Shown here piece by piece: positions 5,839-39,753 of a stretch of DNA of 64,000 nucleotides. The DNA lies in NCBI GenBank assembly GCA_030647775.1, contig JAUSJC010000007.1, forward strand, positions 50,038 to 114,037, read 5' to 3'. Both the position numbers and the translations under genes were made by a program. The DNA is from Candidatus Curtissbacteria bacterium. GTDB lineage: Bacteria; Patescibacteriota; Microgenomatia; Curtissbacterales; GWA2-41-24. The notes under the pieces are model-generated. The model was not told the origin of the DNA. It was given only the letters and a program-made list of their open reading frames with translations, and ran no database searches. Each line of letters begins with the position of its first letter. The first letter of the stretch is position 1.

Positions 5839-6224
5839 TGAACTTAAAACATATAGGAATTTTTTGGGGGAAAGTTGTTAAAGGTAAAAAGAGAGGCAAG
5901 TCTCTCGGTTTCCCTACTGCCAATGTTAAGCTGCACAGGGATATTGCCGACGGGATTTATATATCACTGGCGACAATTGATAAACACCAGTACCCGGCAT
6001 TAACGTTTATCGGCGCGGCTAAAACTTTTCGGGAAAAGGATGTAAAAGCGGAAACGCATCTACTTTCTTTTAGAGAAAACATTTATGGTAAACGGATTTC
6101 AGTCAGGCTTTTGGTAAAAATCCGGGGAAACCAAAATTTCAAGTCAGCAAAGATGCTTGTTTTGCAAATGAAAAGAGATAAACAGATTGCGGAAGAATAC
6201 TTTAAAACCACCAAATATGTTTAG
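5820..6224 (+). CDS. riboflavin kinase domain protein
   Basis: 'GKVVKGKKRGKSLGFPTANV' matches the riboflavin kinase signature (GxVxxGxxxGRxLGFPTANL). Confidence 0.6.
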   Translation: MGNVKIVNLKHIGIFWGKVVKGKKRGKSLGFPTANVKLHRDIADGIYISLATIDKHQYPALTFIGAAKTFREKDVKAETHLLSFRENIYGKRISVRLLVKIRGNQNFKSAKMLVLQMKRDKQIAEEYFKTTKYV

Positions 6225-11964: not shown

Positions 11965-12279
11965 CACTATTGGCATTTTTTAAATTTAGCTTGTTTGTAC
12001 AATCCGAAAGGGGTTCGAAGATTAAATATCACAAAAAGGCATAGCTTCGAGACGGGTTCGAAGATAGGACTACAGTATAATTTGATCTAAGTTAACCTAA
12101 TTCTAACCAAAAGATAACCTAATTCAAGTCAACCAGATACGCACAAACTTGACGCAGTTTGATCTAAATGGATACAATACTTGACGTAGTTTGTGCTATT
12201 GCCATTTTTTGCCGGGGGCATTTAAGATATCTATAGATATCTGCACTTTAATTAATTACGGGTAGGGTAAAAGAAACAG

Positions 12280-12368
12280 TCCTGCCGACGAGATTCGAAC
12301 TCGCAAAAACCGTGTCACGGGTTAGTAGCTTGATAGGCCACCGCGTCTACCAGTTGCGCCACAGCAGG
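12280..12368 (-). tRNA. class II (long variable arm) tRNA of uncertain identity, embedded in a 13-bp leader/trailer inverted repeat
   Basis: Acceptor CCUGCUG/CGGCAGG, 3-bp D-stem with GG D-loop, variable stem-loop CCGU-GAC-ACGG, T-loop GAGTTCGAATCTC. The best fold gives anticodon loop CUAUCAA (formal anticodon AUC), which matches no Leu/Ser/Tyr/Sec isoacceptor. Confidence 0.5.
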
Positions 12369-14107: not shown

Positions 14108-14314
14108 CTAGAATCGCGCCTGTTGGATTACGAACCTCAATTTTTGTTCGTAAAGATCAAGATAACTGCGGTACTCACAGATTTGTTTTAGCGCTTGGAT
14201 ATCGTCGGCAGTTGGAGTCTTTGCTGATTTGTATAAGCTAAAGATGGGGGACAAATTGTACATTGAGGATAACACAGGGACAACTACTACCTTCATAGTT
14301 CGTGAAAGTCGCAT
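14108..14314 (-). pseudogene. 3' fragment of a matrixin-like metalloprotease gene (partial duplicate of 17865..18785)
   Basis: 'TPTADDIQALKQICEYRSYLDLYEQKLRFVIQQ' matches the C-terminus 'IPTADDIQALETICQNRSYFDLYMQRLNFVISQ' of the full-length gene. Confidence 0.55.
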
Positions 14315-14420
14315 CTATGATCCTGGGCTTGCAGGTGATGTTTTCAGTCGCAGCGATGGGACTTATTTAAACCTTATTACTTGCGATGGAGTATGGGACG
14401 GAGTTAAAAAAAAGCTATAA
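14229..14420 (+). pseudogene. 3' fragment of a sortase gene (partial duplicate of 17222..17956)
   Basis: 'GDKLYIEDNTGTTTTFIVRESRIYDPG...DVFSRSDGTYLNLITCDGVWDG' matches the sortase C-terminus including the TLxTC catalytic Cys; no N-terminal half is present. Confidence 0.55.
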
Positions 14421-14469
14421 CAAACGTTTGGTGGTATTTGCTAGGACCCTTTAGGGGTATAATAAATAT

Positions 14470-16028: not shown

Positions 16029-17225
16029 ATGAAGCCTATTTTAGTATCGCTATTTATTATTTTAATGGGGTTTGTTTTTATGCCTTTGCCGAAAGCATAT
16101 GCATACTCAAATCCGGCTGCTGTTCCACTGGGAACTGTTTCTAATTTTGCCGCTCTGGCTAAGACCTCGATTACCTCCCCGACAGGCCCGACTGTACTCA
16201 ATAATGGAGATTTAGGCATAGACAGCCCCGGTACGTGTACCGATTTTGCAACTCCCTGTTCTGCGCCGAATGCTAACGGAACGATAAACAGCGGTGCGAT
16301 TCAATTCCAAAATGCGGTTGCACTGCAGGGCCAGACGGATGCAACTGCGGCTATTACCAATATTGGTTTAAGAGTAGCCGATGACACACTTCTAGCTCAA
16401 CTTGGCGGTTAAACCTTAAATCAAGGCGTTTACGATGTGCCGGCTGCTGCGACTAATTTGACCGGGGATCTCACTTTAAATGGTGATGCCAGTTCCGTCT
16501 TTATCTTCCATTTGACATCCACTCTTATTACAGATAACGGAAGTAGAGTACTTCTTACCGGAGGGGCGCAAGCTTGCAATGTATTCTGGAAAGTTGATTC
16601 ATCGGCTACATTTAATGGAACCACAACGATGGTCGGAACCGTTTTGGCTTTGGCGGATATTACTTTTCCTGGAGGCGGAGCAACTTTAGATGGAAGAGTA
16701 GTTGCCCAAACGGGAGCGATCACTTTTAACAACACGACTATAAATAACTCCTCATGTGCTTCTACCAGCTCCAGTACTAGTTCCAGTTCCGGCGGATCAT
16801 CTACTTCAGTTTTTACTCCACTCAATAGCGGAATAATTGCCCCAACTATAATAGAATCAAAAAGAATCAGCCCAACGAGTGTTTTTATCAGCTGGGGACC
16901 ATATTCGGGAATAGATACTTTTATCATTCAGTATGGTCTTGAAAACGGGAATTGGTTATACAGCACCAACGTCACGGGGTTCTCAACCACCATCAATGCT
17001 CTACCTTCGAATCAACCCATCTGGTTTAGGATCGCAGCTAGAAACAGTCAATCAATAGGAAAGTACGGTGAGGCAAAACTTGTCGGAGGGCCGAGTCTGC
17101 CAAGTGCAGGATTTGCTCCCCGCGAGAATAATATTCCATGGTATATTCCGGTTGGTGTCGGCACCGCGTTTTTGGCCTCTTTACTTGTAATTCAAAGAAA
17201 ACGCAAACTGTCATTGGGAAGTTGA
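16029..17225 (+). pseudogene. DUF3494 (ice-binding-like) surface protein with C-terminal FN3-like region and sorting-signal-like tail, interrupted by an in-frame TAA at 16410..16412
   Basis: Signal peptide 'MKPILVSLFIILMGFVFMPLPKAYA'; 'LGTVSNFAALA...TGPTVLNNGDLG' and 'GAQACNVFWKVDSSATF' IBP beta-helix motifs continue in the same frame on both sides of the TAA; the C-terminus is 'LPSAG', a hydrophobic stretch, then 'QRKRK'. Confidence 0.7.
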
Positions 17226-17956
17226 AGGATTACGTCCAGCGGCCACTTCTAATAATTACGTTTACCGTATTTTCTCTATTTCTTCTTTTTCATATTGCCC
17301 CTGGCAGTAGCACAAAATCGGTACCTCAAAGCAAAGTAGCAAATAGTGTTTTTTTTAGCAAGGATTCTGCGGGATTGCCGATGCGTCTTTTGATACCTGC
17401 AATTAATGTTAATGCCGCTATTTTGCATCTGGGTGTTACTTCCGGTGGACAGATGGAAGTTCCGGATAATGCTGTCGATGTCGGTTGGTTTAAGTTGGGA
17501 CCGCGACCTGGAGAGATAGGCAGTGCTGTTATTTCTGGGCACTTTGACGGGAAAAATGGTGAAGAGGGAGTGTTTACTAATTTGAATAAGTTGACAGAAG
17601 GTGACAAATTATATGTTGAAGACGGTAGAGGAACATATAAAGCTTTCGTAGTCAGTGGGAGCCGCGCTTATGACCCCGGATATGCTGACGATGTTTTTAG
17701 TCGAAATGATGGTGCTCACCTAAATTTTATTACCTGTGGCGGAGTTTGGGATAATAATAAAAAAAGCTATACGGAAAGATTAGTAATATTTACAGATGCA
17801 AGCATTTATGAAAGTTGGGGTTATAAGATGAAAAGTACCCTGCAAAATACACGGTTGACCGGTTCTACCTTATCCCAAGATTCTTTTGGAGCTGGCTTAT
17901 TACAAAGTTTAGCCTTTGCATATAAAGGTCAAAATAGCTTCTATTTTGGCAAATAG
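17222..17956 (+). CDS. sortase family transpeptidase
   Basis: N-terminal TM anchor, conserved His in 'ISGHFDG', 'LNFITCGG' (TLxTC) catalytic Cys, downstream Arg. Probable TTG start at 17222 overlapping the upstream stop; the ORF-track start at 17138 is likely an over-extension. Confidence 0.7.
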   Translation: MKDYVQRPLLIITFTVFSLFLLFHIAPGSSTKSVPQSKVANSVFFSKDSAGLPMRLLIPAINVNAAILHLGVTSGGQMEVPDNAVDVGWFKLGPRPGEIGSAVISGHFDGKNGEEGVFTNLNKLTEGDKLYVEDGRGTYKAFVVSGSRAYDPGYADDVFSRNDGAHLNFITCGGVWDNNKKSYTERLVIFTDASIYESWGYKMKSTLQNTRLTGSTLSQDSFGAGLLQSLAFAYKGQNSFYFGK

Positions 17957-18785
17957 TTTCGAGCGCTTGGATATCGTCGGCAGTTGGAATGATTTGCTGA
18001 TTGGTATTGGCGTGCATGATGGACTTTTTGTTTTGCAGGTGGCCGAGACCAATAGCATGGCCAAGTTCATGGGCGATGGTGTGCACCAGCTCCTTTTTGT
18101 TGACGTTGAAGTAAATTTCGATTTTACTAGTGTTTGGGTCGTAGATTCCCTCTTCCGGTTTGACGGCAAGTTCTTGGTTAAAAGTATTAATAGTCCGGTT
18201 TAATTGGTTAACATTGGTGTTAAAGAGCTGGGCTGATTGGTTTAGAGACTCCGCCATTTTATTTAAGCGGTCGGCATCAGCTTTTAGGTCTTCCTGCTGT
18301 TTTAATAATTTTTCGTATTCGTCTTTCGGCGCCCCGCCTTTAGAATTCCAATAGTCTATTTGATAATTCAGGTCGGCAAGTTTTACCTTAAAGTCGGCCG
18401 ATTCTTTTTCATACTGGGTAAGACTGGGTTTAAGAGTGCTTTCCTGGCTCTGGACTTGGCCTTGAAGGTTCGTTATTTGTTTATTTAAAGATTGCCTCTG
18501 GTCATAAACAAGGCTGATCGTCAGTTTACCCCGGGGGTCATAGGCAAAAAGGTCTTTACCCTGCACACTCTCCCAAATTTCTGCGGCTTCTTCAACATTC
18601 CGGGTGAATTCGTCACGGCTTAAATTAAACCTGTTATCTACGGCATCAATCCGGAATTGGATAGGTTTGTCGCAGGGCGAAAAATATAGGAATTTTGTCC
18701 TGTCGGAATACGGAAGGCTGACTACTCTTAAGAAAATGGCGGCAATGGCAACTAAAATTGTCAGCTGCAACAGGACTTTTTTCAT
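17865..18785 (-). CDS. matrixin-like (M10) zinc metalloprotease with N-terminal TM anchor and coiled-coil region
   Basis: 'HELGHAIGLGH' HExxHxxGxxH plus 'SIMH' Met-turn; convergent with the sortase gene and overlapping its 3' end by about 90 nt. Confidence 0.7.
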   Translation of the reverse strand: MKKVLLQLTILVAIAAIFLRVVSLPYSDRTKFLYFSPCDKPIQFRIDAVDNRFNLSRDEFTRNVEEAAEIWESVQGKDLFAYDPRGKLTISLVYDQRQSLNKQITNLQGQVQSQESTLKPSLTQYEKESADFKVKLADLNYQIDYWNSKGGAPKDEYEKLLKQQEDLKADADRLNKMAESLNQSAQLFNTNVNQLNRTINTFNQELAVKPEEGIYDPNTSKIEIYFNVNKKELVHTIAHELGHAIGLGHLQNKKSIMHANTNQQIIPTADDIQALETICQNRSYFDLYMQRLNFVISQLQKNLGIR

Positions 18786-18851: not shown

Positions 18852-19622
18852 ATGAGACTCAAGTTTCTGCAGGTCAATATTTTCAGGGGAAAGTTTTTAG
18901 GCTCGCTTTTAGATTTTATAGAAAAGGTAGACCCGGATATTATTACGATGCAGGAGGTTTCTTGCGGGGAGATAAATTTATATGAGGACAAAAAAGCTGA
19001 CCTTTTCGAACTTATAAAGGGAAAAACAGGATATGACGGAGTTTTCCATTCGGATACAAGCCTTTCAGGCAGTCCTTTTTCGCGATTTGGAAATGGGGTT
19101 TTTAGCAAATGGCCTATTAACAGTTCAGCAGTTGTACCTCTAGCAACTTATGGATCTTTGACTTTAGATGAGTTTAATAATAACAAGGGTGACGTTTGGG
19201 CAAGACTATCCCGCCATATGTTGGACGCGGAAATTGAAATAGAAGGGAAGGCTGTGCATGCAATTTCGATCCATGGTAGAAGAATTGCGCCGCCGCTAGA
19301 TGACCCGGAGAATATTCGTCAGGCGCATGTGATGGCAAACCATTTAAAATCCTTTGGTGATAAGCCGTTTATTGTCGGAGGGGATTTTAATATGCCTCCG
19401 GGAACTGAAGTTATAAAAATTGTTTCGTCTGTTGCTAGTAACTTAATGGCCGACTGCGGGGTAAAACAGACCTTAAACCCGCAGGAACATGAGCTCGGGG
19501 AAAAAGGTTACTTGGTTGATTTTATCTTTACCTCGAAGCATTTTAAGAAGATTTCTTTGGAGGTACCGCAAGTGACGGTTTCGGACCATTTGCCGGTTGT
19601 GGCAGAGTTGGAAATGCTTTGA
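18852..19622 (+). CDS. endonuclease/exonuclease/phosphatase (EEP) family protein
   Basis: 'LQVNIF...DPDIITMQEV' N-terminal motif and C-terminal 'SDHLPV' His. Confidence 0.75.
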   Translation: MRLKFLQVNIFRGKFLGSLLDFIEKVDPDIITMQEVSCGEINLYEDKKADLFELIKGKTGYDGVFHSDTSLSGSPFSRFGNGVFSKWPINSSAVVPLATYGSLTLDEFNNNKGDVWARLSRHMLDAEIEIEGKAVHAISIHGRRIAPPLDDPENIRQAHVMANHLKSFGDKPFIVGGDFNMPPGTEVIKIVSSVASNLMADCGVKQTLNPQEHELGEKGYLVDFIFTSKHFKKISLEVPQVTVSDHLPVVAELEML

Positions 19623-19778: not shown

Positions 19779-19849
19779 GCGGGTGTAGTTCAATGGTAGA
19801 ACACCAGTTTTCCAAACTGGATACGGCAGTTCGATTCTGCTCACCCGCT
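19779..19849 (+). tRNA. tRNA-Gly(TCC)
   Basis: Acceptor GCGGGTG, anticodon loop UUUCCAA, T-loop GTTCGATTC. Confidence 0.8.
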
Positions 19850-19905
19850 CAGCATTGGCGGGCAGGCAAGCGAAAAAGAGGGGTTCGACTCCCCTATCCC
19901 GCTCC
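19850..19905 (+). other. tRNA-like 3' fragment (T-arm plus acceptor-like end) immediately after tRNA-Gly
   Basis: 'GAGGGGTTCGACTCCCCTATCCCGCTCC' resembles a T-arm and acceptor 3' strand with no D or anticodon arm; it carries the motif 'GGCAGGCAAGCG', also found at 22917 and 23588. Confidence 0.25.
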
Positions 19906-19958
19906 CGTCTTTCGCCGTCCGTCGCCTTTGGCTAAGGACGGCTACAGACGGTAGCTTA

Positions 19959-20201
19959 TTGATGTACTACGTTTATATACTTCAGAGTTCAAAATCTGGA
20001 ATTTTTTACTACGGTTATACGACCGATTTAAAGAAGAGATTTAAAGAACATAACGAAAGCAAGTCTAAATTCACGAGCGGTCATATACCCTGGAAGCTTG
20101 TTTTCTACTGTGCATTTATTGATAAGAAAAAGGCAAAAGATTTTGAACTTTATCTAAAATCAGGATCTGGCAAGGCGTTTGCCTATAAGAGATTAGTTTA
20201 A
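19959..20201 (+). CDS. stand-alone GIY-YIG nuclease-domain protein
   Basis: 'YYVYILQS...YYGYTTDLKKRFKEHN'; paralogous to the gene at 11608..11868. Confidence 0.65.
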   Translation: MMYYVYILQSSKSGIFYYGYTTDLKKRFKEHNESKSKFTSGHIPWKLVFYCAFIDKKKAKDFELYLKSGSGKAFAYKRLV

Positions 20202-37836: not shown

Positions 37837-39753
37837 CTACAAGTGGTACTTTTTTCTGCTCCTCGCGGTTTTTTTGTAAAGAATAAGCCCGGCGGCGATG
37901 ATTAAAACCGTTATGAGCATGCTCACTAAAAAGCTTTTTAGGAAAATAAGGTTATAGATGGGAAAAGCAGAAACCGGAAGAGCAATTTGGGTACCAGCAT
38001 AGCTTAAAGTGAGCGTATCATTTGAGGAGCCAAAAATGGCCGGGTTTGTAAGTCTGAACTGGAAGCTTCTTTTGGCATAGGGCGGCAAAAGGGCTATTTC
38101 AACAGAATTATCTGTCGGTTGCGGTTTTGCAATATCGGTAATCCTGCGCAGAGTATATGACGTTAGCGTAAGGGATTTTCCAAAAATTGAGGTATTGCCG
38201 GCATTTTCCAGCCTGGCTATAACAGAAACGGGAATGCCGGAAATTATTTTTTGGGGAGCACTTAGGGAAAGCTCGGGTATGACACTTGGCGTCGGAAGGT
38301 CCTGGGCAAATTCGATGGCAATATCTTTGCCAAGATCACCGCTTCTTTTATAGCTTCCGGCAGGGTAAGGGGTTTGGGATGATACTCCCCTTTGAACGAA
38401 AGTAATATGGTTAAAATCCAGTTTTTTAAAATAATCGAGGCCGCCGGAGGTTGAACCCCACGTCGGGTCAACTTGAACCCAGCCCAGCTTATCGTCCCAA
38501 TATTCGGGCCAAGCGTGCAGAACGTCACCCGGAAAAAGAGCCAGCGAAAGAGGCCTTAGGCGCTCGTTTTGCGTATAGGCATAACCTTCAACTTCGCGGG
38601 CGGGAATACCTGCCGCCCTGGCGATAGCGATGAAAAGGTCCGTAAATTCTGTACAGATGGCATCATTAGGACTGGCGGCCGCCGCGGCAGCCCCTTTTCT
38701 TTCAACCCTTGTTTGCTTCAGGCGGTCCTCATTGTAGCTTAAGTATGTTGTGACGAAGTTATAAATTGCCTGCGGGTTTTTGAGCTCTTGAGCCTTTTTT
38801 TTAATGAATGCTGAATCTGTTTCCCAGTATTTTTGTTTTGTTGTATAAAGTTCCCTGTCGCTTTGGCCCAGAGGAGAGTAGATATTCCTGAAGGGCCTGC
38901 TAAAAACTTCTACGAAGCCCGTAGCCGTGACATCAATCTTTTGGTGCGATGAAAGTTTGTAAAGAGCCAGGAAGTTATTATCTTTGTCGACAATGACATC
39001 ACGCGGTGCGGGGTCCAGTTTCTGGATGACAATTTTTTGATAATTGTTATCCGGCGGCAGGGCGATTTCCCGCATTTGGCTTGTCAAATTATTATTTTCA
39101 AGGTGGTAGTTCAGGGTAAAGGAAAAAACCTGTTTTTCGCCGAAAGATATGGCAATGCCTGATTCAACCAGTTGATCTTTGCCAAAGGTGAAGGATTGAC
39201 GAATCCCAACCTTCTCGCTTGTAAGCGGTGACGGGACCGCAAAAGCAATTTGCCCAAAGGATATGGGGGTCGAAACCGCAGCGCTGTAATCGGTTATATC
39301 GGCCGAGCGGGCGAGGCGCGGAATTGAAACTTCCCAAATCTGGCCGGATTTGGAGGCAAGTTCACCCGAGGTATACGTAAGGGTCCAGGGGAGGGTTTTT
39401 TCGATACCAATGACCTTTTGGTTAAATTTAACGCTGATTGTGGTCAAGTTGTTTTCGAATTTCGCCTCTGTTTCCAATGGACCCGTTGCATCCTGGGCTT
39501 TGACGTTTTCTACTTTGGTCGAGCCGATTTTCAGTTCAAATTTATCGGCGTAATAATTGGAAGTTTTATTTTTTAAGACTATTTGTTGGGTAACTTGGGT
39601 TTTGCCCGTTTCGTCGACATCGTACTCGACCTTGTAAGTTGTTCCAAATTCGCCGGCGGCGTGAGTGACGGGAGTGAATAGTGCGTAGTGCACAGTGATT
39701 AGTGAGAGGAGGACGAAAGCGGCAAGACAAAAGCGAACAAGAAAACGCATCAA
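37837..39753 (-). CDS. transglutaminase-like domain protein, membrane anchored at both ends
   Basis: 'CTEFTDLFIAIARAAGIPAREVEGY' catalytic Cys region, 'HAWPEYW' His, N- and C-terminal TM segments. Confidence 0.7.
   Translation of the reverse strand: MMRFLVRFCLAAFVLLSLITVHYALFTPVTHAAGEFGTTYKVEYDVDETGKTQVTQQIVLKNKTSNYYADKFELKIGSTKVENVKAQDATGPLETEAKFENNLTTISVKFNQKVIGIEKTLPWTLTYTSGELASKSGQIWEVSIPRLARSADITDYSAAVSTPISFGQIAFAVPSPLTSEKVGIRQSFTFGKDQLVESGIAISFGEKQVFSFTLNYHLENNNLTSQMREIALPPDNNYQKIVIQKLDPAPRDVIVDKDNNFLALYKLSSHQKIDVTATGFVEVFSRPFRNIYSPLGQSDRELYTTKQKYWETDSAFIKKKAQELKNPQAIYNFVTTYLSYNEDRLKQTRVERKGAAAAAASPNDAICTEFTDLFIAIARAAGIPAREVEGYAYTQNERLRPLSLALFPGDVLHAWPEYWDDKLGWVQVDPTWGSTSGGLDYFKKLDFNHITFVQRGVSSQTPYPAGSYKRSGDLGKDIAIEFAQDLPTPSVIPELSLSAPQKIISGIPVSVIARLENAGNTSIFGKSLTLTSYTLRRITDIAKPQPTDNSVEIALLPPYAKRSFQFRLTNPAIFGSSNDTLTLSYAGTQIALPVSAFPIYNLIFLKSFLVSMLITVLIIAAGLILYKKTARSRKKYHL

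Follow-up and report, generated by a model that had tools for sequence, protein, structure and literature searches.

We analyzed a 64,000-nucleotide stretch of DNA from Candidatus Curtissbacteria (contig JAUSJC010000007.1; hereafter the window), and within it the locus at positions 16029–18785, where three adjacent genes encode a candidate wall-anchored protein, a sortase and a matrixin-like protease. Our comparison with homologous loci makes it very probable that the first two genes form a surface-display cassette of the candidate phyla radiation (CPR), that the gene for the anchored protein (the substrate gene) carries a nonsense mutation in this genome, and that the protease gene is an unrelated neighbor. 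The first gene would encode a Sec-exported protein that joins an Ice_binding (DUF3494) beta-helix to an FN3-like domain and has an extended sorting signal at its C-terminus, and the second a membrane-anchored, class-F-like cysteine transpeptidase. All three genes are already covered by the NCBI automatic annotation of this 117,946-bp contig, which belongs to a metagenome-assembled genome of Microgenomates.

The cassette was traced in species-representative genomes, in which 73 sortase loci have enough upstream sequence. An Ice_binding homologue is found upstream of the sortase, on the same strand, in 56 of these 73 loci and is directly adjacent in 42, and 53 carry a [LFM]Px[TAS]G tail. Independent examples of the Ice_binding-sortase pair are provided by loci L002, L003 and L005. 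According to the labels of the records, the cassette occurs in Woese-, Davies-, Roizman-, Collier-, Shapiro- and Levybacteria, Saccharimonadales, Uhr-, Falkow- and Vogelbacteria and others, some of the labels being non-CPR and unconfirmed. The comparison indicates that the sortase and its substrate are a real conserved pair, widespread in CPR/Patescibacteria. In the window, the TTG start of the sortase overlaps the TGA stop of the substrate gene as TTGA, as the initial annotation had noted, and this junction recurs in 9 of the 11 orthologous junctions examined, which supports the translational coupling proposed there.

The sortase gene (17222–17956, plus strand) encodes a protein of 244 residues, starting with the TTG at 17222–17224 and ending with a TAG at 17954–17956. 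The NCBI protein P0001 (244 aa, “class F sortase”) is 100% identical and has the same TTG start. Pfam Sortase (PF04203) scores 73.7 bits on this product (cutoff 26.6). The initial annotation had left the class of the enzyme to a profile search, and in this search class F is the best class by some 80 bits or more: NCBIfam class_F_sortase (NF033748) gives 114.9 bits across its whole 155-position profile, against 28 bits or less for the other classes, a score that nevertheless falls under the NCBIfam cutoff of 166, as do those of five other tested CPR members (113–122 bits). On these profiles, we regard the sortase as a typical member of a divergent, class-F-like CPR branch. Like class F sortases, it has a His-Cys-Arg triad and an N-terminal membrane helix. 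The predicted catalytic residues His107 (SGHF), Cys172 (FITC) and Arg186 (ERLVIF) fall in alignment columns that are invariant or nearly so, and GH and TC are found in 120 of 120 sortase homologues. Unlike class F sortases, which serve many substrates, the CPR enzyme shares a dedicated operon of two genes with its only substrate, and the window copy bears a 50-residue run-on tail and a Gly in place of Asp after the catalytic Cys. Because this Gly (residue 173, 17738–17740) replaces the usual Asp, which is present in 114 of the 120 homologues (Gly in 2), the activity of the window sortase is not assured. Compared with its closest relative (L001), the sortase core shows 32, 21 and 67 differences at the three codon positions, a pattern that indicates purifying selection. 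The AlphaFold2 model of the protein is of low confidence (mean predicted local distance difference test (pLDDT) score of 53). A search of solved structures by sequence returned distant class C/D sortases only (E 3e-4 or weaker), and the class is not settled by it.

The substrate gene (16029–17225, plus strand) starts with an ATG at 16029, encodes the signal peptide MKPILVSLFIILMGFVFMPLPKAYA at the N-terminus, ends with a TGA at 17223–17225 and spans 398 codons if an in-frame TAA is read through. With this internal stop read as X, Pfam Ice_binding (PF11999) scores 139.6 bits (cutoff 28.7) and covers profile positions 2–208 of 208; in the sequence search of solved structures, the antifreeze protein 6eio matches with an E of 1.9e-31. 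The initial annotation had described a DUF3494/FN3 protein. Its Ice_binding domain is indeed full-length and its FN3 part is weak, with 19.6 bits for PF00041 (cutoff 25), weak matches of the region to solved FN3 domains (E 0.002–0.009) and a precomputed PF00041 hit in some of the homologues; that the protein is encoded by one open reading frame does not hold, as the TAA lies at 16410–16412. The full-length beta-helix domain is shared with known ice-binding/DUF3494 proteins (6eio, 5uyt). Unlike them, the window protein carries an FN3-like domain and a sortase signal in addition, and the hosts are groundwater/soil-type CPR metagenome-assembled genomes, in which antifreeze activity is not implied. 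A role of the DUF3494 protein as an adhesin or a surface structure seems more likely.

The premature TAA, codon 128, was assigned from the alignment, the stop usage of the window and a separately built Logan assembly. It stands in the context LAQLGG*TLNQGVYDV (asterisk, stop) and cuts the reading frame after codon 127 of 398. A signal peptide and a C-terminal sorting layout are both encoded, but in this genome the stop separates them. Ten of the 11 aligned homologues have a Gln (LGGQTL) at this position, from which we read the lesion as a single CAA to TAA change. Close full-length homologues (393–456 aa) are 64–74% identical to the substrate and, apart from the TAA, no frameshift or further defect was found. 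The NCBI protein P0121 (“ice-binding family protein”) is 100% identical and consists only of the 262-residue remainder after the stop. As assembled, the gene is predicted to be able to yield only a 127-residue secreted stub or a 262-residue product without signal peptide, and neither of the two could serve the sortase as a substrate. Recoding of the stop was ruled out: TAA closes 18 of the 38 long open reading frames in the window, being the commonest true stop, and no suppressor tRNA was found within the window. An assembly artefact is made unlikely by the Logan contig L091, which is 100% identical across 4431 nt, TAA included. The sequence thus describes the substrate gene of this genome, as assembled, as a recent pseudogene produced by a CAA to TAA nonsense mutation. 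The cassette has probably lost its function in this genome, or else the stop is a strain variant.

Decay of the cassette is seen in further lineages. P0143 (404 aa) is an in-frame fusion of Ice_binding/FN3 with the C-terminal half of the sortase, the LPSAG tail of L017 (around 5900–5992) is frameshifted or truncated, and the Ice_binding gene of L002 (4334–6004) is without its N-terminal third. These cases bear on the alternative that living cells of this population have an intact, working cassette, the TAA being a minority or strain allele in the consensus or being usefully read through. We consider this unlikely. The gene does carry a single stop and no second lesion at 64–74% identity to intact homologues, the sortase core is under purifying selection compared with L001, and neither the TTGA junction nor any part of the sorting signal has been lost. 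However, the TAA is shared by the NCBI record and the separate Logan assembly, it is the commonest genuine stop of a window in which no suppressor tRNA was found, and the cassette decays elsewhere too.

The sorting signal of the substrate (17097–17222, plus strand), read from the translated sequence, opens with the pentapeptide LPSAG, which the spacer FAPRENNIPWYIPVG connects to a hydrophobic segment; IQRKRKLSLGS is the basic tail. The C-terminus reads LPSAG-FAPRENNIPWYIPVGVGTAFLASLLVIQRKRKLSLGS, so the layout given in the initial annotation, LPSAG followed by a hydrophobic stretch and a QRKRK tail before the TGA, is present as described. A sorting pentapeptide was counted in 116 of 120 substrate homologues. 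LPNTG, found in about 80 of these after adjustment by eye for three false picks, is the consensus of the family. At position 4 of the motif, Thr accounts for about 85% and Ala for about 11% (LPNAG 10, LPSAG 2, MPNAG 1), with Ser in 3 and Val in 1; counted over genome loci, Ala is found in 9 of 53. The Ala-type loci are phylogenetically scattered, the nearest sortase relative having a Thr-type substrate in 8 of 10 cases, and no column of the sortase alignment was found to separate Ala-type from Thr-type loci. LPxAG substrates are known from two proteins in S. aureus and from SUB0207 and SUB0241 in S. uberis. The one characterized class F sortase, the housekeeping sortase of Propionibacterium/Cutibacterium acnes, recognizes LPXTG (PMC8225981). 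The neighboring substrates, mostly LPNTG, are an indirect hint that the CPR enzymes may recognize LPXTG-type substrates. The initial annotation took LPSAG for an unusual specificity. Because Ala at position 4 recurs in 11–17% of orthologues, scattered and with no matching change in the sortase, because LPxAG is known elsewhere and because the one characterized class F enzyme uses LPXTG, the alignments identify LPSAG as a tolerated variant of the LPNTG family signal rather than a new specificity.

In its pentapeptide, hydrophobic segment and basic tail, and in the Ala accepted as a variant at position 4, this signal resembles the Gram-positive LPXTG/LPX(A/S)G signals. It differs from them by a 10-residue spacer ending in Trp (FAPxxNNIPW in the CPR family): the Trp lies exactly 10 residues past the motif Gly in 62 of the 101 complete tails among the homologues P0121–P0240, and the consensus is LPNTG-FAP(H/R)(E/K)NNIPWYIPAG, then a transmembrane (TM) segment, then IQRK. 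The window spacer is at 17112–17156. The generic anchor models fall just under threshold on the window tail (TIGR01167, LPXTG anchor, 13.8 with a cutoff of 15.9; PF00746, 14.0 with a cutoff of 20), and the conserved spacer may be the reason for these near-miss scores. In Shapirobacteria-type loci (L023, L034, L035, L039, L041, L042 and L056), LPNTG is kept and the protein ends short with ...NxLFIFINQIKNWFL, with no clear membrane segment or basic end. The initial annotation had looked to other tails of the LPxAG-hydrophobic-basic type; when all stop-to-stop open reading frames of the window were scanned for LPxTG-like motifs or for C-termini with a hydrophobic segment and a basic tail, this protein alone was found. 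A transglutaminase-like protein (37837–39753, tail LPVSAF...) was considered as a second substrate and rejected, since its motif does not fit.

By analogy with characterized sortases, the precursor would be exported and retained in the membrane by its C-terminal segment. The Cys172 of the sortase would then cut between position 4 of the motif (Thr or Ala) and the Gly, and the protein would be moved onto a peptidoglycan precursor, so that the wall would display its beta-helix and FN3 parts. All of this, from cleavage through an acyl-enzyme intermediate to attachment to the cell wall, is inferred from the analogy. It is conceivable, though quite improbable, that the sortase instead polymerizes the protein into a fiber, in the manner of class C sortases and their pilins, or attaches it to an S-layer or lipid acceptor and not to peptidoglycan. 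A dedicated operon of one sortase and one substrate is typical of pilus or specialized sortases, the conservation of the spacer exceeds the needs of a generic sorting signal, and CPR cells need surface appendages for host contact. Against such a role, the best profile is the housekeeping-like class F, the class C profile gives 36 bits or less on the CPR sortases tested, and each locus has one substrate gene and no second pilin or tip protein.

According to Meheust et al. (2019; PMC6744442), more than half of CPR genomes have a sortase family, which is near ubiquitous in Microgenomates, and sortases are mentioned in further CPR genome papers. The statement of the initial annotation that surface-display machinery is uncommon in ultrasmall bacteria is, in view of this distribution, wrong. 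The CPR Pam pili described in a 2026 preprint are a different system. Our literature search found no paper that combines DUF3494 with a sortase, no CPR paper that deals with DUF3494, and none naming the substrate of CPR sortases; the conserved cassette, assembled from known parts, appears to be hitherto undescribed. We put forward, tentatively and as a rather speculative proposal, that DUF3494/FN3 proteins and their dedicated class-F-like sortase constitute a conserved, undescribed surface-display system of Microgenomates and further CPR lineages, with the signal LPN[T/A]G-FAPxxNNIPW-TM-IQRK and a coupled TTG start, the displayed protein being perhaps the main wall-anchored adhesin for contact with hosts or surfaces. 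If this were so, repeated decay of the cassette would mark lineages that shift lifestyle or escape selection on the surface protein. The sortase family of more than half of CPR genomes gains from the cassette a candidate for its cognate substrate, together with an extended sorting signal that is defined, and a conserved wall-anchored beta-helix protein is a candidate adhesin. It also makes possible a direct biochemical test of a CPR sortase with LPNTG and LPNAG peptides. For the window itself, the outcome is mainly a correction of the first reading: no new specificity, no protease module, and a substrate gene that is a pseudogene as assembled.

The third gene (17865–18785, minus strand) encodes a Matrixin-family (metzincin) metalloprotease. 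Its translation holds a HELGHAIGLGH zinc site and a SIMH Met-turn, Pfam Peptidase_M10 (PF00413) scores 32.6 bits (cutoff 24), and the NCBI protein P0241 (306 aa, “matrixin family metalloprotease”) is 100% identical. As in other matrixins (Peptidase M10), the HExxHxxGxxH site and the Met-turn are present and the Pfam score is above cutoff. Unlike in these, the catalytic domain is split by a coiled-coil-like insert of about 115 residues and preceded by an N-terminal membrane segment. Orthologues of about 300 residues were found across Microgenomates, where this insert-bearing, membrane-segment form is conserved and unlinked to the sortase. The initial annotation grouped substrate, sortase and protease in one module; the substrate/sortase pair is conserved as described above, whereas 84 of the 85 loci searched lack any matrixin homologue within about 6 kb of the sortase, the sole exception being the closest relative, L001. 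In L086 and L088, matrixin orthologues with 69–70% identity are paired divergently with Exo_endo_phos, and the genes that follow them downstream are unrelated to the sortase. The window matrixin pairs divergently with such a gene as well (18852–19622). This synteny points to matrixin plus Exo_endo_phos as the conserved unit and to the sortase as a recent neighbor. No LPxTG-type tails were found near the matrixin orthologues. The gene order thus depicts the matrixin as an accidental neighbor outside the sortase module.

A single functional module of substrate, sortase and matrixin, in which for instance the protease processes the wall-bound protein or sets it free, and with LPSAG as the sign of an unusual sortase specificity, is hardly credible and largely refuted by synteny: the three genes are contiguous with a sortase/protease overlap of 92 nt, L001 retains an overlap of 107 nt, and a decayed sortase fragment also abuts a matrixin fragment (14108–14452), which makes the two families neighbors twice in the lineage, but the matrixin is missing near 84 of 85 sortases, its orthologues pair with Exo_endo_phos and have other genes downstream, the overlap depends on a tail present in 2 of 120 sortases, and LPxAG-type motifs recur without sortase co-variation.

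The convergent overlap itself, given as about 90 nt in the initial annotation, measures 92 nt (17865–17956): the matrixin stop is at 17865–17867 and the sortase stop lies 92 nt inside the matrixin gene. It arises because the sortase has a lineage-specific C-terminal run-on tail of 50 residues (17806–17956, plus strand). The median number of residues after the catalytic Cys is 24 in the 120 homologues, and more than 40 are found only in P0001 (73) and P0002 (78). L001, whose sortase is 79% identical to that of the window at the protein level, has an overlap of 107 nt with its matrixin. The 13 differences between the two overlaps distribute as 3/7/3 over the sortase and 3/3/7 over the matrixin codon positions, that is, 7 of the 13 substitutions fall at matrixin third and sortase second positions. 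This small sample suggests that the overlap and tail evolve in the matrixin frame. Sortase residues 196–244 have a pLDDT of about 25, within the overall low-confidence model, a weak hint that the tail would be without structure. The terminator scan found no terminator-like site between the convergent genes, where there is only a weak AT-rich hairpin of 8 bp (17930–17948). A lineage-specific rearrangement probably brought the 3' end of the matrixin gene against the sortase, which now continues for 50 more codons along the antisense strand of the matrixin gene. On the most economical reading of the sequence, this rearrangement cost the sortase its original stop together with the spacer between the genes, and what was left was a run-on tail that is tolerated and convergent transcripts that overlap.

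Several points weigh against the picture of a conserved two-gene cassette, disrupted here and lying next to an unrelated protease. The sortase scores under the class F cutoff, as do the other CPR members tested, and has the Gly after its catalytic Cys; the standard LPXTG anchor models (TIGR01167 and PF00746) are below threshold on the substrate tail. The chemistry of CPR sortases, the acceptor included, is a prediction by analogy. Both assemblies that carry the TAA may derive from the same reads, which leaves room for variation in the population. Finally, the run-on tail is open in two lineages (50 and 60 codons), which leaves room for a function of the tail, and the substitution test in the overlap rests on the 13 differences only.

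A decayed second copy of the sortase/matrixin junction was found at 14108–14452, from Pfam matches and alignments. A matrixin-like C-terminal remnant (minus strand, 14108 to about 14222), corresponding to the last 40 codons or so, abuts a C-terminal sortase half (plus strand, about 14214 to 14452); both remnants are 5'-truncated and stand back to back. Pfam Sortase scores 29.6 bits at 14229–14420. The sortase remnant shares 64% identity with the intact copy; its frame is shifted within an A8 run, and its C-terminus is of the normal short kind (...RLVVFARTL*). A patch of 46 nt at 14190–14234 is 91% identical to 17962–18007, the remainder being about 69% identical, and there is microhomology at the junction. 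LapA_dom and NUDIX genes lie upstream of the cassette in L003 (3867–6570) and downstream of it in L005 (4749–7435). In the window, the remnant is directly upstream of the LapA and NUDIX genes, matching the position of the sortase in L005, and the intact copy is downstream of them, as in L003. Sortase copies on both sides of the LapA/NUDIX genes indicate that the lineage once had two copies.

Three further observations concern the surroundings of the locus. The transglutaminase-like protein mentioned above (37837–39753, minus strand) has 638 residues and a C-terminal membrane segment with a basic tail (…LPVSAFPIYN…LYKKTARSRKKYHL). Its orthologue lies about 6 kb from the matrixin in L086; in the window, the gene is about 19 kb away and on the other side, and this changed spacing indicates that the region was rearranged. 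At 12279–12368 (minus strand), ARAGORN reports a 90-nt “tRNA-Asp” with the anticodon ATC, for which the Rfam tRNA model gives only 42.5 bits; this gene is odd or mis-typed. The stretch 19779–20201 holds a tRNA-Gly(TCC) gene followed by an open reading frame of 80 residues which, from the look of its sequence (YVYIL...GYT...), we take to resemble a small GIY-YIG-type protein.

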